Source of the DNA: an uncultured virus (IMG/VR IMGVR_UViG_3300044645_000935)
Taxonomy: Duplodnaviria; Heunggongvirae; Uroviricota; Caudoviricetes; Crassvirales
Length of the DNA: 64,000 nucleotides
Virus record (IMG/VR): IMGVR_UViG_3300044645_000935
Strand: one strand, 5' to 3'
A program made the translations under genes and the position numbers. Of this stretch, positions 45,446 to 61,489 are shown piece by piece. The first letter of the stretch is position 1. Each line of letters begins with the position of its first letter. The notes under the pieces are model-generated. The model was not told the origin of the DNA and ran no database searches. It was given only the letters and a program-made list of their open reading frames with translations.

Positions 45446-47854
45446 TTACTCTTCATCTTGTTTTTTGCTTTTAATGATTATCCATCTACCCTGTTGGTCT
45501 CTGTCCTCCTCAGGCATGGTCCCCTCTTTGTAAATAGCATAGGAGACTAACCATCTGTAGAACTTTGTCCTGCTGATACTCATTCGTCCTCTAGGTCCGT
45601 AGTCAGGATACTCCTCCACGAAGTTGTAGTAGAGTTCATTCTTGTAAAGCCTAGTGTCTGTCTGTAGCACCACGTTACGCTCGTTGCTGTCAACCAATCC
45701 GCACCACTCGATAAACTCATGGCAGGTCTCTGCGGACAGCTGTCTGATTTTTAAGTTAACAAATTTACTCTTAACCAAACCTGTCTTGAGGTAAGATTTT
45801 AAACAGCCAATCATGTAGTTGTCAAACTCGCACCAATCATCATCGTTCCAATCACCGAACATCAACTTTCCAAACTCATCCAATGGAGTGAACTCCTTGT
45901 TGTAGTACTGATGCAACTCCAACTCCCACTTACGTCTTGCGAATGAATTGCCGGCACCTTTGATGGCGTAGTTAGTAGTGAGTGCAATCTTTGGCGACTT
46001 GCTGAACGGAATCTTGATTGCATCCTTATTCTTTTTCTCTAGAGTCAAACCTTCAGTTATCACACTGAACAATCGCTCGAAGTCAAAGTGCTTTCTCACA
46101 TCATCAAAGCATAATATCTGTGTATCTGCTGACACCAACTGATAAGCGAAGCTTCGCTCGAATGCAAATGACTTGCCGTCAATCACCACGAGTTTCTTCA
46201 TCTTGCTTAGCGCATTCATAAGCAATCCCTTTCCCGTTCCTCCCTCAGGGTTGTCGCTGATTACCTCATCGTTTAGAATCACAGCAGGACAGAACGATAA
46301 GTTCTTGTATCCATGCATCAAGAATCCAATGGTGCTCTCCATTGATTTGATTCTACCTTCGTCACCACCATTGATGTTGCTTACAAACTTTCTGAAGTCA
46401 CATCTCTCGGTCACCCCACAGAGCGTGAAGTTGCGGTCAATCACATGGTCCTTCCAAACATACCCGCCAAGGTCAAGGTAGTCTAGCGTGCTGATTGAAT
46501 CCTTGGTAATCTTTACAGCGCAGTTCTTGTAGTACAGGTATGCGGCATCCTTGGTATCAGCAATGAAGTAAATATCAATGGTTGATAGCATGGACAGGAA
46601 TTCCTCCTTAAAGAATCGTGTGTTGTCTGCGAAGTAATTGTATACCCCGATGTCATCCAACTCTAGCAGGTGGTTCAGGACGAAGTCCTTGATTTCTTTC
46701 TCTGAGGTGTGGTCTATCAGGTTGTTGGTAACCTTTACGAATACATAGTTCTTTCCTCCCTCAGGGCAGTACTTGTAAAAGCCTGAGTCTTCAAGGAACT
46801 GCTTGAACTGAATGTGTACTACTCTGATGACTCCCTTCTCGTTTCTGTCCCAAAAAGTCTGCTTCGCATTCTCCTCTTCTACCTTGTTGAGTACTGATTC
46901 GATAGTATCGCTGTCCAAGTTGGAGTCCTGCAGTTGGAAGCGAATCTCTTTTTTTGATACACCACGTCTGAGTTTGGCACGAATCTGATTGATACGCTCC
47001 TCGTCTTCGTAGTACTTGGTACCGAAGTTTGCGGTGTGCTTGTATGCTGAGTCAATCGTGTTAGAAATTTCACGAGTTGTAAAGTCCTCAGAGGCGTACT
47101 GATTCAGGACATAGGATGCAAGACCCTTGTTGATGCCGAAGTCATTGAACGCCATCGCTAGGACGTAGCAGTTCTGATTGCGCTGTCCCTCCATCATTGG
47201 GTATTTCTTTGTCCACCACTTGACAAGTATGTCCACTATCTTATTCTCATCTGTGATTGGAATGGTAGGGCTGTCCTTAACCTTGCTTACCTCTGTGTAC
47301 TCAGGCTCCTCGATTACATCCCATACAGATGAGTTCTCATTGATGTATAGCAATGGGTCATAAGACTCGTAGCATACACGAGACAGGTTCTTGCTAGTCT
47401 TATCAAAGTAGGGGCTGTTAAAGTATTTCTCTAGGCTGTTAAAGTAGTTGGTATGGTTCTCTGCATCTGCAGGAATCTTTACGATTACCTTCAGACCATT
47501 TCCCGATGGAGAAATAAATACTGAGAAAACATACTTGTTCTTGGTCAGGTTCTCTTTGTCATGTAGCAGTTCCTTCTGCTTCTCATATCCATCAAAGTCT
47601 AGGCAGATAAACCCTGAGTGCTGAATCAGAGATGCATCTGTACGCTTGTTGAATGTACCGCTGAAGCAGATGGCAGGAAGTTCCTTCTTTAATTCCTGTC
47701 GCTCAGGCTTGCGCTTCTCTGCACGAATCTTCTTTACCAATTCCTTGGTTGTCTCTGAACCATCCTTGATTCTGAGAAGAATCAGACGTATGTCCCTGAA
47801 GAACGGAGTGTCAGTATCCTTGATGCTCTTGAAAATTGTTACGTTCTGTGTCAT
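45446..47854 (-). CDS. Primase-helicase (VirE-N/BT4734-like + PriCT-like + SF3 helicase)
   Basis: HSGFICLDFD, FISPSGNGLK, EGQRN, GGTGKG, CFDD, TTN. Confidence 0.85.
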   Translation of the reverse strand: MTQNVTIFKSIKDTDTPFFRDIRLILLRIKDGSETTKELVKKIRAEKRKPERQELKKELPAICFSGTFNKRTDASLIQHSGFICLDFDGYEKQKELLHDKENLTKNKYVFSVFISPSGNGLKVIVKIPADAENHTNYFNSLEKYFNSPYFDKTSKNLSRVCYESYDPLLYINENSSVWDVIEEPEYTEVSKVKDSPTIPITDENKIVDILVKWWTKKYPMMEGQRNQNCYVLAMAFNDFGINKGLASYVLNQYASEDFTTREISNTIDSAYKHTANFGTKYYEDEERINQIRAKLRRGVSKKEIRFQLQDSNLDSDTIESVLNKVEEENAKQTFWDRNEKGVIRVVHIQFKQFLEDSGFYKYCPEGGKNYVFVKVTNNLIDHTSEKEIKDFVLNHLLELDDIGVYNYFADNTRFFKEEFLSMLSTIDIYFIADTKDAAYLYYKNCAVKITKDSISTLDYLDLGGYVWKDHVIDRNFTLCGVTERCDFRKFVSNINGGDEGRIKSMESTIGFLMHGYKNLSFCPAVILNDEVISDNPEGGTGKGLLMNALSKMKKLVVIDGKSFAFERSFAYQLVSADTQILCFDDVRKHFDFERLFSVITEGLTLEKKNKDAIKIPFSKSPKIALTTNYAIKGAGNSFARRKWELELHQYYNKEFTPLDEFGKLMFGDWNDDDWCEFDNYMIGCLKSYLKTGLVKSKFVNLKIRQLSAETCHEFIEWCGLVDSNERNVVLQTDTRLYKNELYYNFVEEYPDYGPRGRMSISRTKFYRWLVSYAIYKEGTMPEEDRDQQGRWIIIKSKKQDEE

Positions 47855-47865
47855 AAATGTTAATT

Positions 47866-48012
47866 CGGTGTCGGTTTAATGTCGTGTAAGTTACTGATAA
47901 TCAATCTGCTGTCAATAATGTCAATTTTATTCTTAAAATTTAATCAGAAAAAAAAGAAAGAAAGAATAATTATATATAGAAAATATAGGGAAATGAGTTT
48001 GACATTTTCGTC
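47866..48012. other. Origin-like module upstream of primase
   Basis: TGTCG/TGTCA repeats, TGATAATCAA, purine-rich AT tract, inverted GACAT. Confidence 0.5.
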
Positions 48013-48025
48013 AGGCAAAAAGGCT

Positions 48026-48054
48026 AAAAAAAAGGGAGAGATTTTCTCCCCCTT
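48026..48054 (-). terminator. Intrinsic terminator after ssb
   Basis: AAGGGGGAGA-AAA-TCTCTCCCTT then T run on - strand. Confidence 0.75.
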
Positions 48055-48064
48055 AGTTTGCCTA

Positions 48065-48364
48065 TTAGAACGGCAGGTCACCATCATCCTCGGGCTCGGG
48101 TAGTACTACCTTTGCTTGTGGCTTTGGTGCCGCTTTGCTAGGAGCTTGCTGTGTTGTTGGCTCGTAGGTATCGAGTTCAACATAGTGGTTACCACTTCTA
48201 GCGGTCTTGATGTTTAGGTTCACCCAACCATTCTTCTGATGGTCTTTAATGAATGCTACCGCATCATCAACCTTTAGTGATAGTCTCCCTACTACAAAGT
48301 CAGGAGCCTTTTCGTTTCTCTTGAAGGAGAAACCTTCTGCAAAGATTTTTTCATCTTGTGCCAT
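48065..48364 (-). CDS. Probable single-stranded DNA-binding protein
   Basis: KAPDFVVG; acidic tail EDDGDLPF; next to SSAP/exonuclease. Confidence 0.7.
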   Translation of the reverse strand: MAQDEKIFAEGFSFKRNEKAPDFVVGRLSLKVDDAVAFIKDHQKNGWVNLNIKTARSGNHYVELDTYEPTTQQAPSKAAPKPQAKVVLPEPEDDGDLPF

Positions 48365-48385
48365 AGTGTAAATTGTTTTTAGTAT

Positions 48386-48438
48386 GCCTCAGTCTATTTG
48401 AACCAACCACCTACCTCTAAGGCTAAGCAGATGATTGG
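48386..48438 (-). promoter_or_regulatory. Predicted H-type pseudoknot in ssb leader
   Basis: 14-bp GU-containing stem; loop GCCUUAG pairs with downstream CUGAGGC. Confidence 0.6.
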
Positions 48439-48484
48439 ATATTTATCCAAATCGTGCATTAAATTACACTTTTGGCAATTTATG

Positions 48485-48560
48485 TAGTCAGGGCAGGACT
48501 CGAACCTGATAAGCAACCTCAAAGGATTTGGCTACCTTGCCGCATTACGCCCACCTGACT
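48485..48560 (-). ncRNA. tRNA-like RNA with non-canonical D and anticodon arms
   Basis: Acceptor AGUCAGG/CCUGACU, T-arm CAGG-UUCGAGU-CCUG; 11-nt central loop; no CCA. Confidence 0.65.
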
Positions 48561-48567
48561 AGTACTC

Positions 48568-49338
48568 TTAAATTAGGAACTCATCAATGAAGTAATTATC
48601 AATGTTGTCCGTAGGCTTGCTCCCGAAGTACTTAGAGAAGACTTCTATGGCTCGGGCTACCTTACGCTCACCTGACTCGATAAACTCGGGAGATGGCTTA
48701 AAAATACCTAGAACTCCTGTTGTCTTGTCAATGGCATAGAACACCAAAGGCTTACCAAATAATTGCTGATAAATATAACACTGCGAATCGTAGTTGTATG
48801 CCTTCGCTGAGTATTTAAATTTCTGAATGTCGCCTGTGGTCTTCAAGTCAATCAAGAAATCCTTACCAACGATGTCAGCCTTACCCTTCCACATCATCCC
48901 TTGAATCTGTCCCACAGCGGGAACCTCAAACTGATTACCCTCTCTGTAAATCTCATCGTAAAATGTGATATTGCTTTTCATAATACTAACCAACTCCCTC
49001 ACCTCATCCTGCTCTTTCTTTAGCATACAGAACGGAAGGTTATTTGTCTCGCAGTAGTTCTTGTACTCCTTGGTATTCCTAGTGCTCACATCAACGAAAG
49101 GTGTAGCCTCTGCCTTCTCAGGCTCAAGCAACAACTGATGGAAGAATCGCCCATCCATGAAAGCCTTGCTATCCTCTCTTGACTTACCGAATTCCTTCGG
49201 GTTTGTAAGCAAGGTCCCAATGTCTGAGTTTGATAGGTAGTTCTTGCCTACCCCACCATAGTACTCTTTGTCATCATTAAGGAGAGCCAAGATATTTGGC
49301 TCCCCTGTTAGGTCAATTGTCTCTAGCAATGTCTTCAT
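48568..49338 (-). CDS. RecE-like PD-(D/E)XK exonuclease (DUF3799-like)
   Basis: LSNSDI, WKGKAD, IDLKTT, YDSQCYIY. Confidence 0.8.
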   Translation of the reverse strand: MKTLLETIDLTGEPNILALLNDDKEYYGGVGKNYLSNSDIGTLLTNPKEFGKSREDSKAFMDGRFFHQLLLEPEKAEATPFVDVSTRNTKEYKNYCETNNLPFCMLKKEQDEVRELVSIMKSNITFYDEIYREGNQFEVPAVGQIQGMMWKGKADIVGKDFLIDLKTTGDIQKFKYSAKAYNYDSQCYIYQQLFGKPLVFYAIDKTTGVLGIFKPSPEFIESGERKVARAIEVFSKYFGSKPTDNIDNYFIDEFLI

Positions 49339-49970
49339 TACTTCAACAAGTCTACAACTGCCTGCTTAACTTCATTGGTCATGCTGTACTTTCTGTTTAA
49401 CTGCTGACCAATCTTTCCAATGCCCAACTCTTTGTTGGCATTCACATACTTCACTACGCTCTTCCAATTGTCTGAGCCAATAACCAACTCAATCAACTCT
49501 GCGCTAGGCTTAGCCTTGGCAGGAGCAGGAGCAGGTGCTGATGTCTCAACCTCAGGCAAGTCCTCTCCTGCAAATATGTAGATGCCCAATCCAAACATGG
49601 CTAGGTTCTTAACCAAGCATCGCATGATGGTCTTGTTGATGTCGAATGTAGTTGCCGCTTCAACACTCTTTACCCCATACTTGGTGGTGTACTCATAAGA
49701 ATGTTTCTTCATGGACTTATTCTTGCCGTCCATCACAGGCAACCACATCTCTAGGGTCTGCCCTTCAATGGTTACTTGAGTGTGGCACATGAATCCTAGA
49801 GCCTCATCGTAATCTGTAGGCAGGATTTGATAGGATGCATCGGGACATTCTTTCTTTACAACGGACCAAGCCCATGCCCATGATAGGTAGGTAAGTCCGT
49901 CTTTCTTTTCAACGTACTCATTTACATTGATGGCTGATAGCCTTTCGAAAACTGATTTGTTTTGTGTCAT
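49338..49970 (-). CDS. Sak/Rad52-like single-strand annealing protein (DUF1071-like)
   Basis: LTYLSWAWAW, MWLPVMD, MRCLVKNLAMFGLGIYIFAGEDLP. Confidence 0.85.
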   Translation of the reverse strand: MTQNKSVFERLSAINVNEYVEKKDGLTYLSWAWAWSVVKKECPDASYQILPTDYDEALGFMCHTQVTIEGQTLEMWLPVMDGKNKSMKKHSYEYTTKYGVKSVEAATTFDINKTIMRCLVKNLAMFGLGIYIFAGEDLPEVETSAPAPAPAKAKPSAELIELVIGSDNWKSVVKYVNANKELGIGKIGQQLNRKYSMTNEVKQAVVDLLK

Positions 49971-49983
49971 TTGATTTGATTGA

Positions 49984-50244
49984 TTAAAGTAATTCTAAGA
50001 TGTATTCGGTAATGTAGTATTTCATGTCATCGTCAAGAAGGATGTCTTCGTATTCTCCCTCCTCATTTGTTTTAAGAAACGCTGTAGTGTGAATCAATTT
50101 CACCTTTGTTTCTCCCCAAGGTGGGCTGTCGTAGTCTCCGTCCTCATCAAAGGATTCAACTCTGTAGTCGCCTTCCCAAATGTAATCTGAGTCCCCGTAA
50201 CTGAACTCAATTGATTGGTCGTAAAACTCTTCTGATGTGTACAT
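49984..50244 (-). CDS. Acidic hypothetical protein
   Basis: ORF; GDYDSPP motif. Confidence 0.7.
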   Translation of the reverse strand: MYTSEEFYDQSIEFSYGDSDYIWEGDYRVESFDEDGDYDSPPWGETKVKLIHTTAFLKTNEEGEYEDILLDDDMKYYITEYILELL

Positions 50245-50255
50245 ACTAGATTGGA

Positions 50256-50558
50256 TTAAATAAATACTGCACGCTCTACTTCCTTGACTACTGATACGTA
50301 GTCCTTATCCTCTGCGATTCGTTTCTCGACCGCAGATATCCCATGAATAATTGAAGGATGCGAAATGCTGTACCCTGCATCATTCATGTACCGCTCGATG
50401 TAAGTAATTTGCATCGGTCTCTTGGCACATAGGTAGTAGACCAATTGTCTAGCGTCTACTATGGCCCGCTTCTTTGTCTTGGAGAAGAAGTCCTCCTTGG
50501 TAATACCGAACAGGTCCACGACCCGCTCTACGTACTGATTAAACACTTCATGTTTCAT
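50256..50558 (-). CDS. DnaA C-terminal-domain-like HTH protein
   Basis: SKTKKRAIVDARQLVYYL...SHPSIIHGI. Confidence 0.75.
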   Translation of the reverse strand: MKHEVFNQYVERVVDLFGITKEDFFSKTKKRAIVDARQLVYYLCAKRPMQITYIERYMNDAGYSISHPSIIHGISAVEKRIAEDKDYVSVVKEVERAVFI

Positions 50559-50583
50559 GGATGTAAATATATTAAATTGTTAA

Positions 50584-50829
50584 TTACTTGTATATTTTTT
50601 GCTCGACTTTTTTTAAATAAAGTTCCATCTCAACAAGTTCTAGGTGCTTGCTTCGGTTGGTGTTGCATTCGTAGAATGTCCCATCGAAAAGAACTTGGAT
50701 GTAGTTTCCGTCATTGTAAAGCAATACATCATCACAAGCACCTTTTAATTCTGCGTTTGGATGTAGTTTCTTGAATTCATTTCTAGTGTAGGACTTTTTT
50801 GAGTCCAACCAATCTTTAAGTTTTCCCAT
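50584..50829 (-). CDS. Hypothetical protein
   Basis: ORF track. Confidence 0.65.
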   Translation of the reverse strand: MGKLKDWLDSKKSYTRNEFKKLHPNAELKGACDDVLLYNDGNYIQVLFDGTFYECNTNRSKHLELVEMELYLKKVEQKIYK

Positions 50830-50841
50830 AATTTAATTAGA

Positions 50842-51156
50842 TTATTTCTCGTTCAATTCTGATTTCAATTTTTGGATGTACAACGTAGCGTCCATCAGTT
50901 CCTCCTGTAGATGATTAAGCCACTCAATTAGAGTGGCCTTATTATCCTCAAGCGTGGTCCCATACTTTAGAATCCCAACCCTAGACCTAGTGTCAAACTT
51001 GTTGACCACTTGCTCTACAATTGGGTCATGGTATTCTCTTATGGTCTTGGCTTCATTTAGATACACGTCCAAGTCCTTCTCAGATAGTTTGAATCCATCC
51101 TCCAAGTGATGTCTTATCCTGCTTGCAAACCAATCAATTTGCGTTAGCCTACCCAT
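50842..51156 (-). CDS. MazG-like / dNTP pyrophosphohydrolase-like helical protein
   Basis: GILKYGTTL..WLNHLQEELMDATLY. Confidence 0.6.
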   Translation of the reverse strand: MGRLTQIDWFASRIRHHLEDGFKLSEKDLDVYLNEAKTIREYHDPIVEQVVNKFDTRSRVGILKYGTTLEDNKATLIEWLNHLQEELMDATLYIQKLKSELNEK

Positions 51157-51535
51157 AGACTACCTCCCCCAACGCTAGGTATTGAAACACGACATCTGCC
51201 GACTCTGAATCCCCGTTCTCCTCCATGTGAGCAATTAGGTAGTGACGCTCATCGCTAGTCGCTAACTTGCTTAGCCTGTCTGCCATTGTCTCTAGGCTTA
51301 TTAAACCAATCTGCTCCTCGATATCCTCTGCGTCATGGATAGGGACCTCAACTCCTTTCATTACAGCCTTAAATGTGGCTACAGATAGGCAAGACTCCTC
51401 TTCTCTAGGGACAGCATTTCTTATCAATCCTACGGCATTTCTGCTTAGGTGGTACCAATAGTTGCTGCCGCCCTCGATGGCTGTTACGAATACGTCCTCT
51501 AGGACTGACTCGTCAATTTCAATTTGAATTTTCAT
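51149..51535 (-). CDS. Conserved hypothetical phage protein (TAIEGGSNYW type)
   Basis: Recognised motif; ends GEVVYG. Confidence 0.75.
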   Translation of the reverse strand: MKIQIEIDESVLEDVFVTAIEGGSNYWYHLSRNAVGLIRNAVPREEESCLSVATFKAVMKGVEVPIHDAEDIEEQIGLISLETMADRLSKLATSDERHYLIAHMEENGDSESADVVFQYLALGEVVYG

Positions 51536-51542
51536 ATTGATA

Positions 51543-51887
51543 TTATTTTTGTTCTACTTTAAGACTTAATCCATGTTCATCAAGAAAAGTTATCACTTCA
51601 AGCAATCCCTTTTTACCAAAATTTCTTATTTTAATTAGGTCCCTTTCTGAGCGTTGAATTAAGTCCTCTAGTGTTCGTATATCATTGGCTTTAAAACAAT
51701 TGTACGTTCTAACAGAGAAATCTAATTTATAGATAGGGGTTTTAAGGAAGTCGTTTATTTCAAAAAACTTCTTTCTTTTTTCTTGATTACCATGGAATAG
51801 CATTATATCTATTACTTTTTCTGCTATTTTTTCAACTAATGTATCTACATCAACAGATGTAAATACTAAATTTTCAGTTCTGTTCAT
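51543..51887 (-). CDS. RNA polymerase alpha C-terminal domain homolog
   Basis: LDFSVRTYNCFKANDI..LIKIRNFGKKGLLEV matches alpha-CTD. Confidence 0.85.
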   Translation of the reverse strand: MNRTENLVFTSVDVDTLVEKIAEKVIDIMLFHGNQEKRKKFFEINDFLKTPIYKLDFSVRTYNCFKANDIRTLEDLIQRSERDLIKIRNFGKKGLLEVITFLDEHGLSLKVEQK

Positions 51888-52164
51888 TCTCTACTTGCTT
51901 TTTGATTTTTTGAATTAATTTGATTACTAAGTCCTGCTCTTTTGAAGTTATGTTGTCAGCATAGTACAACGCATCAGATACTGATTCTAGGGTGTGCTCG
52001 AGGTCCATGTTATCGGGCACCTCGATTGTGATTGTTACTTTCATTTGAATTTTTTGTAGATGATGTAAAATAAAAGACCTATGTGAAGGCCGATGTAAAT
52101 GGTAATGGCCAAGGGGACCGACACAAAAAAGAATTTTGCTAGGTCCCCCAAGATTGCCATGAAC

Positions 52165-52386
52165 CTATTCATCTTGCCCCCTATTTACCATAAACTCACT
52201 CTCGATATCAAAATTATCTAGGTCATGCTCGCTGACCATACCTCTGATTAAATACACGTCAGAGTTACCCGTAGTCCTAGCGTAAAACTCATTAGTTTTA
52301 AGTAGTTCATTCCACTCGTTTGCTAACTCTGTCGCATCCTGCGGTGTCCCCACAAAGAATGTAGATACTTCGATGTTCTTTTCCAT
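52165..52386 (-). CDS. Hypothetical protein
   Basis: Coupled ORF. Confidence 0.65.
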   Translation of the reverse strand: MEKNIEVSTFFVGTPQDATELANEWNELLKTNEFYARTTGNSDVYLIRGMVSEHDLDNFDIESEFMVNRGQDE

Positions 52387-52829
52387 TAGATTACAATTTT
52401 TTTAGGTTGTACTTCAATTATAATATTCTCTTGATACACGTACTCAAGTTCATCCACTAGTCTAGCGTTGTCATACTCCTCATCAAACTCACGCTCTCGC
52501 ATGACAATGGGTGTAATCACCTCAACTATTTGACTCTCGGTCAAGTCTGTCGCAATCACGAAGTTCTCTTCATTAAATGCTGTGGTGCTGATTTCAAATG
52601 AATTGAATCTTCTAGGGTCATTTAGCGACACGTAGCCAACCTCTATTCCTATCTCAAGGCCATGCTTCTCTACTATCTCAAGTGCGGTGTCAATCCCGTA
52701 CCCGTAAACCGAAGCCTCAGAGCCGTCATCGTATATGATAAACAACTCAAACAGGTCAGAAGCCCATATCTCTCTTGCTTTGTGGGTTACAATTAACCAC
52801 ACGAATCCGTCAATAATTCTAATGTCCAT
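52386..52829 (-). CDS. Hypothetical acidic protein
   Basis: Coupled ORF. Confidence 0.7.
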   Translation of the reverse strand: MDIRIIDGFVWLIVTHKAREIWASDLFELFIIYDDGSEASVYGYGIDTALEIVEKHGLEIGIEVGYVSLNDPRRFNSFEISTTAFNEENFVIATDLTESQIVEVITPIVMREREFDEEYDNARLVDELEYVYQENIIIEVQPKKIVI

Positions 52830-52831
52830 GT

Positions 52832-53197
52832 CTAGAAGGATTTTTTAACTTTTAACAATCTGTGAGCAAATAGGCCATGATTACCGCATCCAATATAATT
52901 TGACTCTTGGTCAATAAGCGCGGTAACTTTTAAGACATCGCCTCTTTTTGGTGGGTTCTCTACGAGTTCTGTGTCGTCTAGAACCACGACAATGTCTCCA
53001 ACGCAAAGCGGGTTTCCATCGAAGTCATGGAATTGCAGGTCGATTAACAGGTCGCTGATTTCATCAATGTCGTGGTCATCTGCCCACCTGTTAAGGATTA
53101 CTTCTAGTATGTCCCTGTCGGATAAAGTACTAGATACTCTGTTGAAGTGTGTAACTACCCCGAAGTCGTGGCCATTACGTGTGTCTAATTGAATCAT
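52832..53197 (-). CDS. Hypothetical protein
   Basis: ORF with AAAACACC leader. Confidence 0.7.
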   Translation of the reverse strand: MIQLDTRNGHDFGVVTHFNRVSSTLSDRDILEVILNRWADDHDIDEISDLLIDLQFHDFDGNPLCVGDIVVVLDDTELVENPPKRGDVLKVTALIDQESNYIGCGNHGLFAHRLLKVKKSF

Positions 53198-53231
53198 TGG
53201 TGTTTTGGTTAGGATTTAAACTAATTGTATT

Positions 53232-53262
53232 CGAAAGTAATTCGAGAAATATACTTATCAAA
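53232..53262 (-). promoter_or_regulatory. Bacteroidota sigma-A-type promoter
   Basis: TTTG-N19-TACTTTCG. Confidence 0.65.
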
Positions 53263-53428
53263 ATAAATTGAATTATTTTTTTACTCTAGCAAGTAATTCG
53301 CTACGTTTTATTGGATGGACGTACTTTGCGCACGCCCTGTCAATTGCCTCGAATGTGGAGGATGCTATGCCCTCCCAAATCAATTCCTTGCTTATCCACA
53401 CGGAGTAATAATTTTTCTTTTCCACGGC

Positions 53429-53713
53429 CTATTTTGTTTTAGTTAGATTAAATGGTACCCCATCCAAGCCCAACTCAAAGGTATATCCCTTGGATTCTAG
53501 AATCTGTAGGTACTTGGCGCCCGTCTCGTAGTCGTATCCTTCACGCTCAAATTGGCTCAGCACATTTTGAATGCACAGCGGGAGCGTTTCGATTGTTTCG
53601 AATAGGTCCACATCTTTACAATTACCGCAAAGGTCCCCTTCAAACCACATATCATGGCGTCCCTGTGGGTGCCCACATTCTGAGCAGGTCCACACATCAT
53701 TTGGCTTAGTCAT
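53429..53713 (-). CDS. Hypothetical protein with CxxC..CxxC
   Basis: Start MTKPND. Confidence 0.65.
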   Translation of the reverse strand: MTKPNDVWTCSECGHPQGRHDMWFEGDLCGNCKDVDLFETIETLPLCIQNVLSQFEREGYDYETGAKYLQILESKGYTFELGLDGVPFNLTKTK

Positions 53714-53909
53714 TTGGTCTCTTGGTGAATAGTAAAACAAAAGCCATCACAGACAGAAAACTAAGCAGGAACCCAACGAATACTAGGTCCACAACCGCAC
53801 TAAAAGTGAACTCGGGAGTGTCCATGAGTAACTTGGTATACAATTTAATCGATGCACCTATAGTGAACAGGTAGCAAAGGGTAAGCAAAACTTTTTCAAC
53901 TTTTTTCAT
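53706..53909 (-). CDS. Small two-TM membrane protein (start MKKVEK)
   Basis: Two hydrophobic helices; ATG downstream of hammerhead. Confidence 0.65.
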   Translation of the reverse strand: MKKVEKVLLTLCYLFTIGASIKLYTKLLMDTPEFTFSAVVDLVFVGFLLSFLSVMAFVLLFTKRPND

Positions 53910-53936
53910 GGTATTAAAATTTGCAGATTTATAATG

Positions 53937-53985
53937 CCGTTTCATCCTTTTGGAATCTTCAGTCGGGACACCCATCCCGATACGG
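53937..53985 (-). ncRNA. Type III hammerhead ribozyme
   Basis: CCG-UA^-UCGGGA-UGGGUG-UCCCGA-CUGAAGA-UUCC-AAAA-GGAU-GAAA-CGG. Confidence 0.8.
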
Positions 53986-54010
53986 GGGAGCCCATGCAGG
54001 GCCCCCGACC

Positions 54011-54211
54011 TTAGCCTTTCTTTAGATTTAAGTTAGTTGGATAATAGCGCACGCCAATGGCGTCCGTCTCGGAATTGATGTTGAATTTCTCATGCAGGGC
54101 CTCAAGTTCCTGCAGGTATTGAGCGCCTTGCTCAGCATCCAATCGGGTTAGGCGGTCGATTACTTCTTGAATCAAAACACGTCTCTTTTCATAATTAACT
54201 TGGTAAAACAT
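54011..54211 (-). CDS. Hypothetical early protein
   Basis: ORF track. Confidence 0.65.
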   Translation of the reverse strand: MFYQVNYEKRRVLIQEVIDRLTRLDAEQGAQYLQELEALHEKFNINSETDAIGVRYYPTNLNLKKG

Positions 54212-54229
54212 AGTAGTAAGGGGTTTTGG

Positions 54230-54436
54230 TTATTTGTTTATTTTTAAGTCCTCATTATACAACCAATCGCCTGTCTTTAGGCCATTGGCAATCTCTTCGG
54301 CATACATATACTCGTAGGTAACCTTGCCGACCTTTACGTGGTATGTCTTACGACCTTCCACCTCACCTGCATTCTGAATCACAACCTTTTTTTGGTCGCA
54401 TCCAAATAGACATAAGAAAATTAGTAGTGCTTTCAT
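54230..54436 (-). CDS. Small putative lipoprotein
   Basis: MKALLIFLCLFGC short lipobox-like leader. Confidence 0.55.
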   Translation of the reverse strand: MKALLIFLCLFGCDQKKVVIQNAGEVEGRKTYHVKVGKVTYEYMYAEEIANGLKTGDWLYNEDLKINK

Positions 54437-54439
54437 GGC

Positions 54440-54649
54440 TCAGATATTATTTTGGTAGCAAAAGTTGTCAAAGTAGGCGTTCTCTTGAGCCTCCACATAG
54501 GCCAATTCAAGGGGCCTGTCGGCAATCCTGTAGTACTTTGAATCCTTGCAGTACGCCTTACCTTCAAAGTAAAATCGGTCGCCTTTGTTGATTGTTTGGC
54601 CCGTCTCAGCGCACTTGCTTTTGAATCGAGCAGTTAGGAATCGTCCCAT
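54440..54649 (-). CDS. Small conserved phage protein (TARFKSKCAETG type)
   Basis: Recognised motif. Confidence 0.7.
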   Translation of the reverse strand: MGRFLTARFKSKCAETGQTINKGDRFYFEGKAYCKDSKYYRIADRPLELAYVEAQENAYFDNFCYQNNI

Positions 54650-54671
54650 AGTTTTAGTTGTTTTAATATAT

Positions 54672-54968
54672 TTATATAGTTATATACTTTTTATAATCTA
54701 GTACTTCGTTATCGTCCATGTACCAAATCTTTTCACACTCGTTGAATGTCTTGAAATAGTAAACATCTTCCAATCTTGCACACATAAATATTGGCCGCTC
54801 AATTCCTTGATACATCATGTATGTTAATTCAATGCCATCCATGACTATCCAACATTGATTTTCCGATTCAGCCGTGTACTCAATTTTTCTTCCATTACAT
54901 TGCTGATAATAGATTTCAAACAATATCCGCATTTTTTGTTCGCTTGACATTTTATTAAAATTTTGCAT
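54672..54968 (-). CDS. Hypothetical early protein
   Basis: ORF track. Confidence 0.65.
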   Translation of the reverse strand: MQNFNKMSSEQKMRILFEIYYQQCNGRKIEYTAESENQCWIVMDGIELTYMMYQGIERPIFMCARLEDVYYFKTFNECEKIWYMDDNEVLDYKKYITI

Positions 54969-54976
54969 AGTTTTAG

Positions 54977-55246
54977 TTATTTTAAATAGCCTTCAATTTG
55001 TTTTAATACATTCCATGCCCCGCCATAACTTCGGTCTTTTTTGCCCGTATCTTGGCTGTATTTATGGTTGAAAAATACCTCAGCATTTTCATCTTGCCCA
55101 TAGACCATAAAGTTGTAATACACATGGGAATTTTTGCGATTCAACTTGAATCCAAATATTCTAAAGCCGTTATTTAAATCGGCCCAATGTATTCCCGTAA
55201 ATTTAGGATTACTACGTACGGATTTTTCTAATTCAAATAGTTTCAT
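54977..55246 (-). CDS. Hypothetical early protein
   Basis: Conserved leader AAACACCTAAAA. Confidence 0.7.
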   Translation of the reverse strand: MKLFELEKSVRSNPKFTGIHWADLNNGFRIFGFKLNRKNSHVYYNFMVYGQDENAEVFFNHKYSQDTGKKDRSYGGAWNVLKQIEGYLK

Positions 55247-55261
55247 GATTTTTTAGGTGTT

Positions 55262-55837
55262 TTAGTTATGGTATTTTAAAATGATTTTGCTAGAAATATT
55301 TGTCCCATTTAGGTAATTGGTACCAAAGGTTGAATCGAATTCATTAAGCAGGTCGTATACTTGGTCCTTAGTCCTGCAGGTACCAATCAAAAATGAGTTA
55401 GGGAATTTCATCTCCCAATCACTTCTTGGTGTATACTTTGTACATCTATGAGGGCCCCATAGGAAATATGGCTCGCAATTATATCCCTCATATACATCGA
55501 AGGCTTCTTGTTCCTCAGAATTAAGCAAAAGGATTACTTCAATTTCAGTTACATTTTGATTGATGCTTTTATAAAAATCAATCTTCCAAATTAGGAATTT
55601 CCATACTGCTTGATATACATCTTCTATGTAACCAAATGGGAGCACATTTTCTAACTGCTTTATGTACTCGGGAGCCAATGTAAACCATTTTTCTTCTCGC
55701 ATGATTTTAGCCACTACGGGCATAAGCCAATCCCATGATTCATGGTATTTTAATGCAGAGATTGAATCTTCTTTTGGCTTCATAAAATCAGCGATAACTA
55801 AGTTTTTTTGCTGAATACTGAATAGATTTTCGGTCAT
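55262..55837 (-). CDS. Hypothetical early protein (YHESWDWLMPVV motif)
   Basis: Recognised phage motif; conserved leader. Confidence 0.75.
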   Translation of the reverse strand: MTENLFSIQQKNLVIADFMKPKEDSISALKYHESWDWLMPVVAKIMREEKWFTLAPEYIKQLENVLPFGYIEDVYQAVWKFLIWKIDFYKSINQNVTEIEVILLLNSEEQEAFDVYEGYNCEPYFLWGPHRCTKYTPRSDWEMKFPNSFLIGTCRTKDQVYDLLNEFDSTFGTNYLNGTNISSKIILKYHN

Positions 55838-55877
55838 AATTTTAGGTGTTTAAGTTGATTAAATTGATTTAAAATTG

Positions 55878-55919
55878 CACCCTTTCGCAATCAAATGCCA
55901 CGCTCATAGGCGAAGGGTG
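55878..55919 (-). ncRNA. Three-way-junction motif, copy 1
   Basis: CACCCUU-[CGC CUAUGA GCG]-UG-[GCA UUUGAU UGC]-GA-AAGGGUG. Confidence 0.65.
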
Positions 55920-55924
55920 TATAC

Positions 55925-56152
55925 TTATTTTGCGACCTTCTCCAATTCCTCAATTAAATCCATTTTCCAATATCCGCACATATTTTCAACACCAAATATG
56001 GTCATTGCAAGGTCTTGAATCCCATAGGCTTTCCCCCTATAATGAGCCGACATTTTTTCGTCATTTTTTGAATCGAAATAATCGACCATGGTTGAATAAA
56101 CTCTAAGAGAACTTGCTAGTTCTTTTGCCAATGTTTTTTTGTTTACTTTCAT
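55925..56152 (-). CDS. Hypothetical early protein (start MKVNKK)
   Basis: ATG follows conserved leader. Confidence 0.7.
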   Translation of the reverse strand: MKVNKKTLAKELASSLRVYSTMVDYFDSKNDEKMSAHYRGKAYGIQDLAMTIFGVENMCGYWKMDLIEELEKVAK

Positions 56153-56187
56153 GATTTTTAGGTGTTTAAGTTGATAAATAAAGTTTG

Positions 56188-56231
56188 AACCAATGGAGGG
56201 ATTCGAACCCTCCTTAATTCCAAAATTGGTT
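56188..56231 (-). ncRNA. tRNA minihelix-like element (acceptor-like stem + T-arm)
   Basis: AACCAAU-11 nt-GGAGGG-UUCGAAU-CCCUCC-AUUGGUU. Confidence 0.65.
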
Positions 56232-56423
56232 TTATAAATTGACCTTGTTTGCAAGCCATAATTCATGGCCTGCAGTTATTAAGGAATCGGCCTGCCTAGT
56301 GGTAAGGCCAAGTTCTAGACCTATGCTTCGGGCTCCGTTACCAACTACATAGTTTAGATGGAAGCATTTTATTACTAGGTCTATGCCCCATTTTTTGATG
56401 GCGATTTTTGATTTGTTAGTCAT
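56232..56423 (-). CDS. Small HTH-like early protein
   Basis: ARSIGLELGLTTRQAD. Confidence 0.65.
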   Translation of the reverse strand: MTNKSKIAIKKWGIDLVIKCFHLNYVVGNGARSIGLELGLTTRQADSLITAGHELWLANKVNL

Positions 56424-56446
56424 GTTTTTTGGTGTTTAAGTTTAAA

Positions 56447-57157
56447 TTAATGCTCCAATATTTGGATATTTTTGGTGCCCTTTCTATGGCCACTGCAAAG
56501 GCCACATTTCTCGCACGTAGACTTGAAGCCCGCCTCTTTACTTGCAGGGCAAACTACAGCACCTACCAAGGGCTTGTCCGTAGCAATAAACGAACGGAAG
56601 CCTAGATTTTTTGCTTGGTTGGATTGGATTTCGCTGTGAGTCGAAGCCATGAAGTATACAGAGTAGTCGGGCTTTTTGGCCCATTGGTGAGTATATCCTG
56701 TATGGCTTTTGCTCGCTTTAACCATGTCAGATACTAGGTCCAATGGCACCAAAGTAGGCTCTCCATAGGTCCCAAATCGAATGTACTTGCCTGCAGACAT
56801 TTCAACTATTTTGCTTTCTAGCAAGTGCACAGAAGGGATTTCCTGCACGTTTTGAAACTCACGTGCAATTGATTTAAGCATAGAAACGAAGCCCGAATAC
56901 TGCTGATATTTATGGGTATAACATTTCAAGTAGGCTCTAAATGGGCAATCAAAACATACAGAGTCGGCAAGGTCAAAAAACGTTTTAGGCTCAATTTTTT
57001 TGCCGTTTTTTACCGACTCAGATACGTAGTTGAATTGAGAATCTGAGAAACTATATACCTGCAAAATTTTCTCTGTGCCATTTGAAATTTTGGCATTGGT
57101 GGTCCTGTCTAGTTTAAATACTAAAATGGCGCCATTTACTTTCGTAGTTACTCGCAT
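56447..57157 (-). CDS. Cys-rich Fe-S/radical-SAM-like (Gp88-like) protein (start MRVTTK)
   Basis: CFDCP..CY, IRFGTYGEP, TGYTHQW, CPA..CEKCGLC. Confidence 0.6.
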   Translation of the reverse strand: MRVTTKVNGAILVFKLDRTTNAKISNGTEKILQVYSFSDSQFNYVSESVKNGKKIEPKTFFDLADSVCFDCPFRAYLKCYTHKYQQYSGFVSMLKSIAREFQNVQEIPSVHLLESKIVEMSAGKYIRFGTYGEPTLVPLDLVSDMVKASKSHTGYTHQWAKKPDYSVYFMASTHSEIQSNQAKNLGFRSFIATDKPLVGAVVCPASKEAGFKSTCEKCGLCSGHRKGTKNIQILEH

Positions 57158-57187
57158 AGGTGTTTTGGTTTTGGTTAAATTAAAGTT

Positions 57188-57231
57188 TGGTTCCCGCTCG
57201 CAATCGAATGCCACATCTTAAATGGCGGGAA
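57188..57231 (-). ncRNA. Three-way-junction motif, copy 2 (ends in CCA)
   Basis: UUCCCGC-[CAUU UAA GAUG]-UG-[GCA UUCGAU UGC]-GA-GCGGGAA-CCA. Confidence 0.65.
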
Positions 57232-57238
57232 TATTTTT

Positions 57239-57457
57239 CTAGGCTAATCTAGGCACGAAGTGGTCGCAATCACTTCGCAGGCCATTATAGTCGTGCAGGA
57301 TTGTTTCAGCAACTTGGTAAGGAGCCAACACGTCAAGCAGGGCCAATTTTTCATAGTATGGCTCCAACTCCATGGCCATAAATGTGCACTCCCATGCACT
57401 TTTAGTTGATTTAAAATACTTCTCAATAATCAAGGCGGTCGCTAGTAAATTAGTCAT
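57239..57457 (-). CDS. Hypothetical early protein (start MTNLLA)
   Basis: ATG follows conserved leader. Confidence 0.65.
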   Translation of the reverse strand: MTNLLATALIIEKYFKSTKSAWECTFMAMELEPYYEKLALLDVLAPYQVAETILHDYNGLRSDCDHFVPRLA

Positions 57458-57476
57458 GTTTTTAGATGTTTTAGGG

Positions 57477-57581
57477 TTATTTTTTCTTTTGAGTGAGTGC
57501 TGTATGGATAAATCCAAAAGCGAAAATGAATGCTGTGCCAATTGCAATGATGATTAGGTCTTGAATGATGTAAGGATTCAT
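57477..57581 (-). CDS. 34-aa single-TM peptide
   Basis: MNPYIIQDLIIIAIGTAFIFAFGFIHTALTQKKK, read manually. Confidence 0.6.
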   Translation of the reverse strand: MNPYIIQDLIIIAIGTAFIFAFGFIHTALTQKKK

Positions 57582-57607
57582 AGTTTTTTTTTGTTTATGG
57601 TTATAGA

Positions 57608-57916
57608 TTATTTAACTGCTTTTTTAAATGCTTTTAGGATAATGTTTAACGTGTAGTTTAAATGCTTACTGCCGTAATCATCACATACATCTTTTTTGTT
57701 CATGTTGTATCTTTCCTTAGTTTCAAAATAGGTGCTGTATTTAGATGCATCATCTGAAGGGCGAATGGTTACGAATTGGTTCTTTACTTCAATGGGCTTG
57801 ATTTGTACGTAGTGAGGCCAAGTCCCACCTGCATAGGTCAAAGGGATTTCGTCAGCATTGTTGACAGCCTCAAGCATGGAGTTGATTTCTTCGATTTTTT
57901 TAAGTAGTGCTTTCAT
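57608..57916 (-). CDS. First gene of - strand arm, hypothetical
   Basis: ORF after predicted promoter. Confidence 0.7.
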   Translation of the reverse strand: MKALLKKIEEINSMLEAVNNADEIPLTYAGGTWPHYVQIKPIEVKNQFVTIRPSDDASKYSTYFETKERYNMNKKDVCDDYGSKHLNYTLNIILKAFKKAVK

Positions 57917-57982
57917 GTGTGTAAGTTGTTGATTTGTAGATAGTTAGATGATTTCTCGTATATCGGGCGTTTCCCGCATGTA

Positions 57983-58013
57983 CAATAGTAGTACTTTTCT
58001 TTATTCTGTGCAA
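57983..58013 (-). promoter_or_regulatory. Putative early promoter
   Basis: TTGC-N19-TACTATTG. Confidence 0.55.
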
Positions 58014-58059
58014 GTAGTGGCGCATTTTTTTTTCAATATCCCTGCAATTTTTTTTCTGT

Positions 58060-58400
58060 CAGTTAGTTAGTGCACTAACTATTGGGGCGCAAAGTTTATG
58101 CAGGACAGGGAAGGGAAGGGTATAAAGAGAAGCCTGCTTTCTTCTCGCTCTGTTCTGTATGGAGCGCAGGAGCGGGAGCGGGCATGAGTAATGAAGGGCC
58201 CGTAGTGGTGCCATGGACGTGGGACGTGGTGCCTGTGGTCCTGCAGACATGGGGCCTGCATGGGGCTCAAGGTCGCCATGGGAAAAGCCAAAAAATCTGC
58301 CATGCGCCAAGGGAATCGCACCCCCCCCCCTTCAAAAAAAAAGTCGTTTCCGCCACAGGCCCGGCTGCGCAGAACCGCTACCGAACCCCCACACTCTAAT
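58060..58400. other. GC-rich non-coding divergence region, candidate genome terminus/packaging site
   Basis: Between divergent arms; palindrome, CATG clusters, C and A runs. Confidence 0.45.
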
Positions 58401-58452
58401 TATCTAGTAAAATTTTTTACCTTTACGTAGTTGCAACTTAAACAAACTAGTT

Positions 58453-58686
58453 ATGAAAGGATTAAAGCTTAGTAACTCCATTTATTCAAAGATGAATATT
58501 GGTGGAGGATTAGATGTGAAGAACGGGAGGTTGATTAACAATCGTCCTGACGGTATGACGGGCCTTGCTCAGATGGCTGCTAATAAGAAGATTATGAAGC
58601 GCATTGACAAGGTTGGTATGATTGCTGAGGGTGTATCTATGGGATACATGAGAGCTGAGATGATGGAAGGTCCTGAAGAAATGTAA
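58453..58686 (+). CDS. Hypothetical protein
   Basis: First + strand ORF; A-rich leader. Confidence 0.75.
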   Translation: MKGLKLSNSIYSKMNIGGGLDVKNGRLINNRPDGMTGLAQMAANKKIMKRIDKVGMIAEGVSMGYMRAEMMEGPEEM

Positions 58687-58688
58687 TT

Positions 58689-59339
58689 ATGAACTTACTT
58701 CAGGTTGATTTTCCATCTAGTCAATACATAGCGGAGGAGCATCCTAAAAAACAAATTTACCTACATCATACGGCAGGAAGTCCTAATGGTGTAGGTACTT
58801 TTGGTTGGTGGGCATCCAATACTGAGAGGGTAGCTACGTGTGTTTCTATTTCGGGTATTGGTAAGGGATGTGTTGACGGTCAGATTGTGCAAGGGTTTAG
58901 CTCGAAGTTTTGGGCTTATCATTTAGGATTGCAGAAGATTACGTTTAGTAGTCGCAAGATTCCTTTTCAGCAGTTGGACAAGATTAGCATTGGTATTGAG
59001 ATATGCAATTGGGGTAATCTTCGTGAGGCCAATGGTAAGTTTTACAATTACGTTGGTCGGGAGATGGACAAGGGAATCATTAAGTTGGACAAACCTTACA
59101 AGGGGTTTCAGTATTTCCATGATTACACGGATGCTCAGATTGAATCGGTAAAGGATTTGCTTTTACTTTGGAACAAGAGGTATGGTATTCCGTTAGAATA
59201 TCATGAAGATATTTGGGATATTACTCCAAGAGCTTTGAGAGGTGAGGCAGGTGTGTATACTCACAACTCTGTACGTAAGGATAAGATTGACATCTACCCT
59301 CATCCTAGAATGATTGAGATGTTGAAAAGTTTGACTTAG
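58689..59339 (+). CDS. N-acetylmuramoyl-L-alanine amidase (endolysin)
   Basis: IYLHHTAG, WAYHLG, SIGIEI, YTDAQ, THN..KID..P. Confidence 0.9.
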   Translation: MNLLQVDFPSSQYIAEEHPKKQIYLHHTAGSPNGVGTFGWWASNTERVATCVSISGIGKGCVDGQIVQGFSSKFWAYHLGLQKITFSSRKIPFQQLDKISIGIEICNWGNLREANGKFYNYVGREMDKGIIKLDKPYKGFQYFHDYTDAQIESVKDLLLLWNKRYGIPLEYHEDIWDITPRALRGEAGVYTHNSVRKDKIDIYPHPRMIEMLKSLT

Positions 59340-59860: not shown

Positions 59861-61489
59861 ATGGTAGAGACATCAGGATTGGGCTATTCGCCCAAGGACT
59901 TAAAGTTTGGTACTGAAGGCAGGACCAAATTGATTAACGGCATTGTAAAGATGTCGAAGGCTGTAAAGTCAACTCTCGGCCCTTCGGGTAACACGGTATT
60001 AATCGAGAGTGCAAACCACACACATGGTGTTACTGTTACTAAGGATGGCGTTACTGTCGCCAAGTCAATTGACTTGATTGACCCGGTAGAGAACCTTGCG
60101 GTTCGCATGATGAAGGAGGCGGCCGATAAGACTGCTACATCTGCGGGTGATGGTACGACTACTGCAATCGTGCTTACAGAGGGCTTGGTGCTTGGTGGGC
60201 TTGAGCGCATTACTGAGGACATGAACAGGACTGCTGTGTTGAGACACATGGTGGACATCAGTAACAAGGTGGTGGACAACTTAAGAAAGAAGAGCAAGAA
60301 GGTAACGACATCTATGTTAGTAGATGTGGCCGCTATTTCAGCAAACAATGACCGTGAGATTGGTAAGATTATTTCTGATGTATACAAAGAGGTTGGTAAG
60401 AACGGTGTTGTAACTGTAGAGAGAAGCCAAACGAATGAGACATACTCTGAGACCACCAAGGGATTGCAGATTAATAGGGGTTATTTGAGCCCATTGTTCA
60501 TCAATGATGCAAAAAAAGACGAGTGTATCTTTGATGATGTGATGGTATTGGTAGCTGACATTGAGATTGCCAACATTTTGCAGATTGAGAACGTGCTAAA
60601 ACCAATAATTTCAGAGGGAAAGAAGCTTTTGATTATTTCTCCATGCAATGTGAATGTGATTAACACGCTTGCGGCTAACAGTGTGAAGGGGAATTTGAAG
60701 GTTTGTGCTGTTCCTCCGCCAAATTTCGGATACAAGCAGCATGAATTGATGCAAGATATTGCGTTGAGTGTAGGAGCTACCTACTTTAGTGAGAAGACGG
60801 GTGATGATTTGAGTCGAATCAACTACGGTGACTTGGGTCATGCGGCAAAAGTTATTGTCAGCAAGGACAAAACCATCATTATTCGCAGTAACGCAAAAGT
60901 TGACCAAGGGTCAATTGACGAAAGGGTCAAGCAATTGTGGCAAGCACATGAGCAAGCTACTCGTAAGGCTGACAAAGACTTCATCTTGGAGCGTATTGCC
61001 TCACTTACAGGTGGCATTGGTGTTATTTTTGTAGGTGGTCAGACTGACATTGAGCAGAAAGAGTTGTATGACCGTGTTGATGACGCTGTGTGTGCGGTTC
61101 GTTCAGCTCTTGAGGAGGGTATATTGCCGGGGGCAGGAGTAGCATTGCTTAATGAGAGTGCTGAGATTCCATCTGTTCAGCATCCTCTTACTCATCCAAG
61201 CAAAGAGTATGTCGCTGCAGTAAGCATTGTCACTGAGGCATTGATGGCTCCGTTCCAACAGATACTTGCTAACGCAGGGTTAAAGCCAAGTGAAGTGTAT
61301 AAGATGGATATACCTATAGGTTACGGCTACAATGTCAAGACAGGACAGATGGGTGACCTTATTGAGATGGGTGTCATTGACCCGTTTAAGGTAACACGTA
61401 GCGCATTGCAAAACGCTGTCAGCGTGGCAACAACTATTCTATCAACTAACGCCATCATCACAATGGCACGGAGCTATGAGCAACAATAA
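59861..61489 (+). CDS. groEL: Chaperonin GroEL (phage-encoded)
   Basis: TLGPSG, TKDGVTVAK, AGDGTTTA, GILPGAG, GVIDP..V.RSAL. Confidence 0.95.
   Translation: MVETSGLGYSPKDLKFGTEGRTKLINGIVKMSKAVKSTLGPSGNTVLIESANHTHGVTVTKDGVTVAKSIDLIDPVENLAVRMMKEAADKTATSAGDGTTTAIVLTEGLVLGGLERITEDMNRTAVLRHMVDISNKVVDNLRKKSKKVTTSMLVDVAAISANNDREIGKIISDVYKEVGKNGVVTVERSQTNETYSETTKGLQINRGYLSPLFINDAKKDECIFDDVMVLVADIEIANILQIENVLKPIISEGKKLLIISPCNVNVINTLAANSVKGNLKVCAVPPPNFGYKQHELMQDIALSVGATYFSEKTGDDLSRINYGDLGHAAKVIVSKDKTIIIRSNAKVDQGSIDERVKQLWQAHEQATRKADKDFILERIASLTGGIGVIFVGGQTDIEQKELYDRVDDAVCAVRSALEEGILPGAGVALLNESAEIPSVQHPLTHPSKEYVAAVSIVTEALMAPFQQILANAGLKPSEVYKMDIPIGYGYNVKTGQMGDLIEMGVIDPFKVTRSALQNAVSVATTILSTNAIITMARSYEQQ

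Follow-up and report, generated by a model that had tools for sequence, protein, structure and literature searches.

A type III hammerhead ribozyme of the U10.1-U11.1 variant between small genes of an uncultured tailed phage

An intergenic element of 49 nucleotides in an uncultured phage (IMG/VR record IMGVR_UViG_3300044645_000935; Crassvirales) raises the question whether a hammerhead-like RNA that departs from the consensus core is a genuine ribozyme, and what such a ribozyme would do between two small genes. The whole stretch of DNA that was analysed, 64,000 nucleotides long, is called the window here. A preliminary description had read the element as a type III hammerhead on the minus strand, with a GUA cleavage triplet, a U-U variant at positions 10.1/11.1 and loops suited to the known type III contact, upstream of a small membrane-protein gene. 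We found every element where that description had placed it, with U10.1 at 53955 and U11.1 at 53944, and the predicted cut between 53981 and 53980 agreed as well, with A17 at 53981.

Read on the minus strand, the locus contains the hammerhead core residues C3 U4 G5 A6 N7 G8 A9 and G12 A13 A14 A15.1, together with the U16.1-A15.1 pair and an H17 residue at the cleavage site; the GUA triplet occupies 53983-53981, residue 17 being its A. In the minimum-energy fold of the 49-mer three helices surround the core, loops I and II are closed and stem III is open (Table 1). At 10.1-11.1, where the consensus is paired (usually G-C), the window has U-U instead, which is no bar to membership because an active published exception exists. 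A type III descriptor scanned over both strands of the 64-kb window matched only at 53937-53985, and 300 dinucleotide-preserving shuffles of the window gave three loose sites and one equally good site in total. The layout of a retrozyme or rolling-circle element (paired same-sense ribozymes in terminal repeats, circular RNA replicon) was not found; a single copy of the family lies in the window, between phage genes of a DNA phage genome.

Table 1. Coordinates of the ribozyme, its parts and its neighbours in the window.
Feature	Position	Strand	Remarks
Type III hammerhead ribozyme	53937..53985	-	GUA triplet, U10.1-U11.1, predicted cut between 53981 and 53980
Stem III, 5' strand CCGU	53985-53982	-	pairs with ACGG 53940-53937 (4 bp); two outer pairs covary
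Stem-loop I	53963..53980	-	UCGGGA 53980-53975 / UCCCGA 53968-53963; 6 bp; 6-nt loop UGGGUG
Core strand CUGAAGA	53962-53956	-	read from sequence
U10.1 (53955), stem II UCC/GGA (3 bp) with AAAA loop, U11.1 (53944)	53944..53955	-	
Core strand GAAA	53943-53940	-	A15.1 at 53940
8-bp G+C-rich hairpin	53986..54006	-	abuts stem III, no gap; overlooked in the preliminary description
Upstream ORF, 66 aa	54011..54211	-	no PHROG family; stop codon 4 nt before hairpin
A/U-rich leader, 27 nt	53910..53936	-	without evident Shine-Dalgarno sequence
Downstream ORF, 67 aa	53706..53909	-	hydrophobic; no PHROG family
Three-way-junction RNA, copy 1	57231-57191	-	intergenic, same operon as ribozyme
Three-way-junction RNA, copy 2	55919-55878	-	intergenic, same operon as ribozyme

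The folding energy was ordinary relative to shuffled sequences (z -0.18 over 66 nt) and hence uninformative. The hammerhead is the minimum-energy structure of the isolated 49-mer with a stem III probability of 0.70-0.76, and this value falls to 0.07-0.12 when 30 nt of downstream sequence are added and to 0.01 in 189 nt. We give the low value in long context little weight, since the active ribozyme of phage PaP3 scores even worse. The preliminary description had proposed a search with the Rfam hammerhead models. That search found nothing, although the RNA is real: Rfam release 15 gave no match at the gathering score for any family in the whole window, none of the hammerhead models reached E<=10 in 53000-55000, and by E-value only chance-level matches to non-hammerhead families appeared in 53000-55000 and 55000-58500.

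The closest known system is the type III hammerhead of PaP3 (NC_004466.2, 45419-45467, minus strand), which is identical to the window copy at 43 of 49 bases (88%). The two share topology, GUA, U10.1-U11.1, a 6-bp stem I with a U-G..U-G loop, and a 3-bp stem II with an NAAA loop. They differ at six bases: two in a compensated stem III pair, one that turns U-A into U-G in stem I, one at N7, and one in each of the two loops. PaP3 belongs to another phage lineage with another probable host phylum, and its setting is also unlike that of the window: next to the window copy stand a strong abutting hairpin and a 27-nt leader, whereas in PaP3 the hairpin is weak and stops 6 nt upstream, and the annotated ATG lies 2 nt downstream. 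The window sequence was matched by 71 Pseudomonas phage records. In the available text of Perreault et al. (2011; PMC3088659), U10.1-U11.1 is already reported: the PaP3 ribozyme stands in Fig. S6 among active ribozymes with core variations, the figure text places a U U pair under its 3-bp stem II, and in the primer table it appears as a type 3 hammerhead at the genome end. The same text terms U-U the best of the mismatches only, and gives no rate constant for PaP3. It was the only publication in the literature searched that named both U10.1 and U11.1; nothing relevant on 10.1/11.1 mismatches was found in the literature since 2011, and the available parts of the pairwise-mutagenesis literature do not address these positions. 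The ribozyme class, its phage context and the U-U variant have thus been in print since 2011, and we conclude that 53937-53985 is a genuine type III hammerhead, a further member of a described and tested U-U variant. That its RNA cleaves, as predicted, we consider highly probable.

Other known hammerheads provide looser parallels. The viroid and satellite type III prototypes have the same CUGANGA...GAAA core, NUH triplet, closed loops I and II and open stem III; they differ in having G-C where the window has U-U, and in belonging to rolling-circle RNAs rather than to a DNA phage, and the window copy falls below the Rfam thresholds. As described in the available parts of PMC3088659 and PMC6765202, clustered hammerheads of phages and prophages are likewise intergenic, co-oriented and flanked by changing small genes; the window, in contrast, holds one copy only of this family, and those parts of the literature on clustered phage hammerheads mention neither an abutting hairpin nor a fixed leader nor three states at 10.1/11.1. 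According to the available text of Perreault et al. (PMC3088659), three sets of clustered phage-type hammerheads cleave in vitro and one set does so in E. coli, long phage transcripts were proposed to be processed to shorter mRNAs, and a halovirus transcript is cited whose 5' end lies within 3 nt of the hammerhead site. A 2019 review states in its available text that the purpose of such ribozymes is still to be defined (PMC6765202). We also noted an unannotated type III hammerhead in ElemoA (Flavobacterium phage vB_FspP_elemoA_7-9A, NC_055852.1; 19086-19136, minus strand). This phage is related to that of the window, and its ribozyme has GUA and stands 16 nt ahead of gp62, at the head of a series of small leftward genes; it differs in its canonical G10.1-C11.1 and its longer stem-loops. 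Nothing was found in the literature on LUZ24 together with hammerheads, and the word 'ribozyme' does not occur in the main text of the LUZ24 transcriptome paper.

Pattern scans placed the window copy in a large family. With the U-U bases fixed and the loops left free, a first pattern gave 115 viral loci with 117 matches, 61 of which had stems. In a second pattern, no pairing rule was imposed and 10.1, 11.1 and residue 17 could be any base; its version for genome contigs had tighter loops. Stems were present in 139 of the 143 viral matches listed, in 123 of the 130 metagenome matches listed, and in all 142 genome-contig matches listed under the tighter loops. In an alignment of 121 sequences among the matches listed, 11 of 14 pairs change on both sides (6 in stem I, 3 in stem II, 2 in stem III), and covarying cells numbered 556, compared with 145 after shuffling and no more than 79 after sliding; the share of paired positions in these sequences is partly a matter of construction, since they had been prefiltered for stems. 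A model built from the 121 listed sequences, the window copy among them, scored that copy at 69.6 bits and the rest of the window at no more than 12.8. Short blastn matches of 18-26 nt (Microbacterium, Enterobacter, Synechococcus, Halovirus, Dulem) fell within coding genes among the rows shown, and we dismissed them as chance. Genome-bin contigs often contain the hammerhead family too, and most of the 80 titles shown are Patescibacteria (Saccharibacteria, Paceibacterota), an enrichment that holds among the matches listed and may reflect scan order. A literature search combining hammerhead ribozymes with Patescibacteria found nothing.

In type III hammerheads, the loops meet through a motif in which the 5' U of loop 1 contacts the 3' A of loop 2. 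All 53 distinct structured relatives from the first pattern have U as the first base of loop 1 and A as the last base of loop 2, and in 49 of them loop 1 starts with UG. At the level of sequence, this supports the earlier remark on a loop-loop contact. The pseudoknotted hammerheads of Perreault et al. (2011) are defined by Watson-Crick pairing that links stems I and II or involves a 3' tail. Mutual information over 353 listed sequences, with the flanks lying outside the alignment, gave an APC of 0.058 for the best loop-loop column pair, and none stood out.

The earlier account had treated U-U as a departure from the usual, and within this family it is neither new nor rare. The three free scans (viral, metagenome and genome contigs) were pooled into 353 distinct 49-mers among the matches listed, in which 10.1/11.1 is G-C in 234, U-U in 101, A-A in 12 and C-A in 3; A-C, A-U and G-U occur once each, and U-A and C-G do not occur in these 353. 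The complete viral scan for cores with 10.1 other than G and 11.1 other than U returned 34 matches, of which 23 were structured and 16 distinct, namely 15 A-A and one C-A. The 15 distinct A10.1-A11.1 type III cores (L282-L313) carry GUU in 11 cases and GUC in 4, never GUA, and stand in the same cassette. This A-A class was not found in the literature searched, outside which lie pages 999-1018 of Dataset S1 of Perreault et al. and the source data of PMC9901934. Since U-U is kept in preference to the Watson-Crick alternatives, the pattern of sequences argues for a U-U state that is held by selection rather than one that arose by decay.

The three core classes also differ in residue 17. Among the 353 listed sequences, U-U cores have A in 80, C in 11 and U in 10; G-C cores have C in 167, A in 39 and U in 28; and A-A cores have U in 8, C in 4 and A in none. 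This coupling between residue 17 and core class is the top non-helical signal of the 353 (APC 0.24, with the next at 0.11), and it persists after redundancy filtering at 80% and 70%. A strict pairing rule between residue 17 and 10.1 was rejected: all six A-A cores of the first sample had GUU, yet 4 of the 15 in the complete viral scan have GUC. When 70 disjoint close cross-class pairs were formed from the listed relatives, the complement fitted both members in 37 and residue 17 was identical in 17, and in the genome-contig set just 9 of the 18 U-U cores among the matches listed carry A. Against a functional coupling, the residue 17 pattern could stem from three founding lineages. That the three discrete cores (G-C, U-U and A-A) with their matching residue 17 form a natural tuning code of phages appears doubtful to us.

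Family members usually stand in a fixed order of hairpin, ribozyme, short leader and AUG. In the listed viral relatives, the 45 nt adjoining stem III fold at -10 kcal/mol or below in 90 of 121, compared with 25, 13 and 14 of 121 for segments farther upstream, and in 85 of 121 no more than 2 nt separate the hairpin from stem III. A stable adjacent hairpin was likewise seen in 68 of 107 listed metagenome members against 22 in upstream control segments, and in 89 of 134 listed genome members against 50. On the other side, an ORF starts 10-40 nt past the ribozyme in 111 of 121 listed viral relatives (median 24; a raw count) and in 69 of 105 listed metagenome examples (raw count), while an ATG-started ORF lies at this distance in 40 of 134 listed genome-contig examples (raw count). 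Two to five matches per record were found in 24 of the 48 records searched, each set on one strand; the 48 had been picked for holding a pattern match, one of the matches is unstructured and scores nothing, and two of the records are the same contig. In the mapped regions of nine relatives, the ribozymes sit between small co-oriented ORFs, and one genome (L574) contains all three 10.1/11.1 classes together.

In the window, the predicted cut would create a 3' end on the upstream product 5 nt past the 8-bp hairpin and make stem-loop I the 5'-terminal hairpin of the downstream mRNA. The upstream hairpin was not among the 16 terminator-like sites of a scan of 47000-59000, and has no U run. As described earlier, the ribozyme ends 27 nt before the ATG at 53909 of a small hydrophobic ORF, whose 67-aa product has a strongly hydrophobic C-terminal stretch (best 19-residue Kyte-Doolittle mean 2.76) and is probably a small membrane protein. 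Read from an ATG within loop 1 (53975), the same frame gives 89 aa. The implied tie between ribozyme and membrane-protein gene was not borne out; copies of the family stand before many different genes, and the link is therefore incidental. The 126 distinct downstream proteins of the listed relatives fall into 93 clusters, and only 14 of the 126 are hydrophobic by the same measure. Homologs of three neighbour genes of the window directly follow a hammerhead in other phages; those of the 66-aa upstream ORF do so in two relatives (L149 and L198). The element is patchily distributed: MW202828, the closest named relative, lacks it and LUZ24 lacks the type III copy, so the element is dispensable at the level of lineages. 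The commonest hairpin of the family also precedes genes that have no hammerhead, and a recurrent GTGTC...GACAC hairpin was noted in gene gaps of related phages with or without a hammerhead after it (L572-L581).

The genome around the ribozyme is that of a tailed phage. Terminase, portal, a Sak-like annealing protein, exonuclease, primase/helicase, GroEL and amidase were recognised among 28 proteins scanned. The terminase is 79.5% identical to that of a spring-water phage record and 45% identical to those of Elemovirus phages of Flavobacterium; 86 of its 87 matches carry flavobacterial host names, and the host is therefore likely a member of the Bacteroidota, judging from these names. The ribozyme lies in a run of small minus-strand genes that extends from about 57900 to the replication genes and which, from its layout, we read as an early operon. 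A scan of 47000-59000 for sigma-70 promoters alone returned 27 promoter-like sites against 30.6 expected, and the early promoter was not located. Between the diverging gene blocks, 58060-58400 is a G+C-rich segment with homopolymer runs in a genome of 39% G+C, and is possibly an origin, terminus or packaging region. Elsewhere, the window encodes a GroEL chaperonin (59861-61489, plus strand), shortly past it an 85-aa ORF (61724-61981) that looks GroES-like by eye, and a 3437-aa ORF (31328-41641, plus strand) within the structural gene block.

The same operon contains two copies of another structured RNA. It is a three-way junction made up of a 7-bp outer stem and two hairpins, one of 3-4 bp and one that is T-loop-like with the loop UUCGAU. 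An exact scan with its 17-base core found 24 viral loci. The alignment of 18 sequences combines the two from the window with 16 of the 24 loci; the other eight were omitted, two because they repeat the window copies, two as repeats of other loci and four for lack of the layout. Within it, 5 of 7 outer and 2 of 4 inner pairs covary, the third helix being fixed by the search. This RNA has no Rfam match, lies about 20-47 nt before an ATG, ahead of A-rich leaders, and occurs up to three times per genome. In two phages it adjoins type I hammerheads, of which three copies (L589) and two copies (L590) were seen in an early region shared with the three-way-junction motif; it was not found in 17 hammerhead-bearing records and two named relatives examined. 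We regard it as a candidate nuclease site, stabiliser or unknown ribozyme. From a single contig in which 54654 is linked to 55871 through 28 other letters (52 letters on the short side, 85% likeness), a related strain appears to be without the three genes that follow the second copy. A short hairpin with a tRNA T-arm-like loop was also noted at 56195-56213 (minus strand), in the gap that precedes the ORF with its start at 56152.

What, then, would the ribozyme do in this operon? RNA ends with a 2',3'-cyclic phosphate or a 5'-OH group, when accompanied by hairpins, may resist exonucleases and decay that depends on a 5'-monophosphate. We propose that an active type III hammerhead punctuates the leftward early polycistronic transcript of the phage. 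Hammerhead cleavage yields just these two ends according to the available text of PMC6765202; a cut after GUA would thus place a 2',3'-cyclic phosphate on the upstream piece, 5 nt behind the stable hairpin, and give the downstream piece a 5'-OH at the foot of stem-loop I. Both ends would be expected to resist host exonucleases and 5'-monophosphate-dependent decay, and one long message would become separately stable mRNAs with no need for a host nuclease. The cassette itself would be independent of the gene it precedes and be copied between gene junctions. We put the probability that processing of polycistronic early mRNA into pieces with protected ends is the main role at roughly 0.6. Protection of the cut end by the hairpin is putative, because hairpins also occur without a ribozyme and the hairpin of the PaP3 copy is weak and 6 nt away, with the annotated ATG 2 nt downstream; cleavage may also be partial, as U-U is described only as the best mismatch.

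Several other roles were weighed against this one. Cleavage could serve mainly to insulate translation, by stripping the upstream RNA and giving the next gene a fixed, short and unstructured leader behind a 5' hairpin, which would raise translation; the fate of the upstream piece would then be secondary, and this explanation overlaps with processing. The synthetic RiboJ insulators offer an analogy, and a search of the literature on insulators of this type found no supporting paper. The narrow spacing to the next ATG in the viral relatives suits such a role, as do leaders that are A-rich or contain a Shine-Dalgarno-like word (44 of 117 listed), and hammerheads of the eukaryotic type I in 5'-UTRs of RNA viruses are linked to translation initiation in the available text of PMC13725137. 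It leaves the hairpin that is retained on the upstream piece unexplained, however, and sits poorly with the small number of listed genome-contig examples that have an ATG-started ORF at 10-40 nt (just 40 of 134), so that we hold it unlikely, if still worth reckoning with. Alternatively, cleavage might start the decay of one piece, with slower U-U and A-A cores grading expression down the early operon. Three discrete 10.1/11.1 states, with A-U once and U-A and C-G never in the 353 listed, would be expected of such a timer, as would the genome in which all three classes occur; that U-U is called the best mismatch in the available text of Perreault et al. implies that it is slower than G-C. By eye, however, the classes follow no fixed order along the operon in the mapped regions, and both new ends would be structured, which fits protection better than decay. 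A down-tuning role seems rather improbable to us.

The remaining two explanations give the ribozyme little or no part in expression. The hairpin-ribozyme-leader unit may be a mobile junction module that spreads by repeat recombination and shuffles small genes, its cleavage being real and of little effect on expression; the neighbour-gene homologs that follow hammerheads in other phages, the patchy presence among relatives and the other motifs that fill the same slot are all in keeping with this. Stem I, however, is scrambled in sequence while its pairing and the loops are kept, an indication that fold and catalysis, rather than sequence identity, are under selection, and we think it quite improbable that mobility accounts for the element. 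As to an inactive or accidental look-alike, or a coding part of the 89-aa ORF that starts in loop 1, the lack of an Rfam match, the z-score of -0.18 and the frame open from 53975 would be compatible with it; against these stand the one equally good site in 300 shuffles, the hundreds of covarying relatives and the active PaP3 homolog at 43/49, which make this the least credible explanation, with hardly any chance of being correct.

Altogether, processing of the early transcript is the explanation that we favour, and the question of the biological job of these ribozymes is testable in cultured carriers, the Bruynoghevirus phages for the U-U form and ElemoA for the G-C form. The compact family is missed by Rfam 15 although its members, in phages and Patescibacteria genome-bin contigs, number in the hundreds, and a new covariance model is therefore warranted. 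Cheap and sharp enzymology could address both the three-state core and the way residue 17 is linked to it. If the coupling is functional and not inherited, it would point to an unrecognised long-range interaction of stem II with residue 17. Were the tuning code to hold true, it would include an A10.1-A11.1 class of ribozyme that the literature searched did not contain, and a single phage would set differing cleavage rates at the gene junctions of one transcript.
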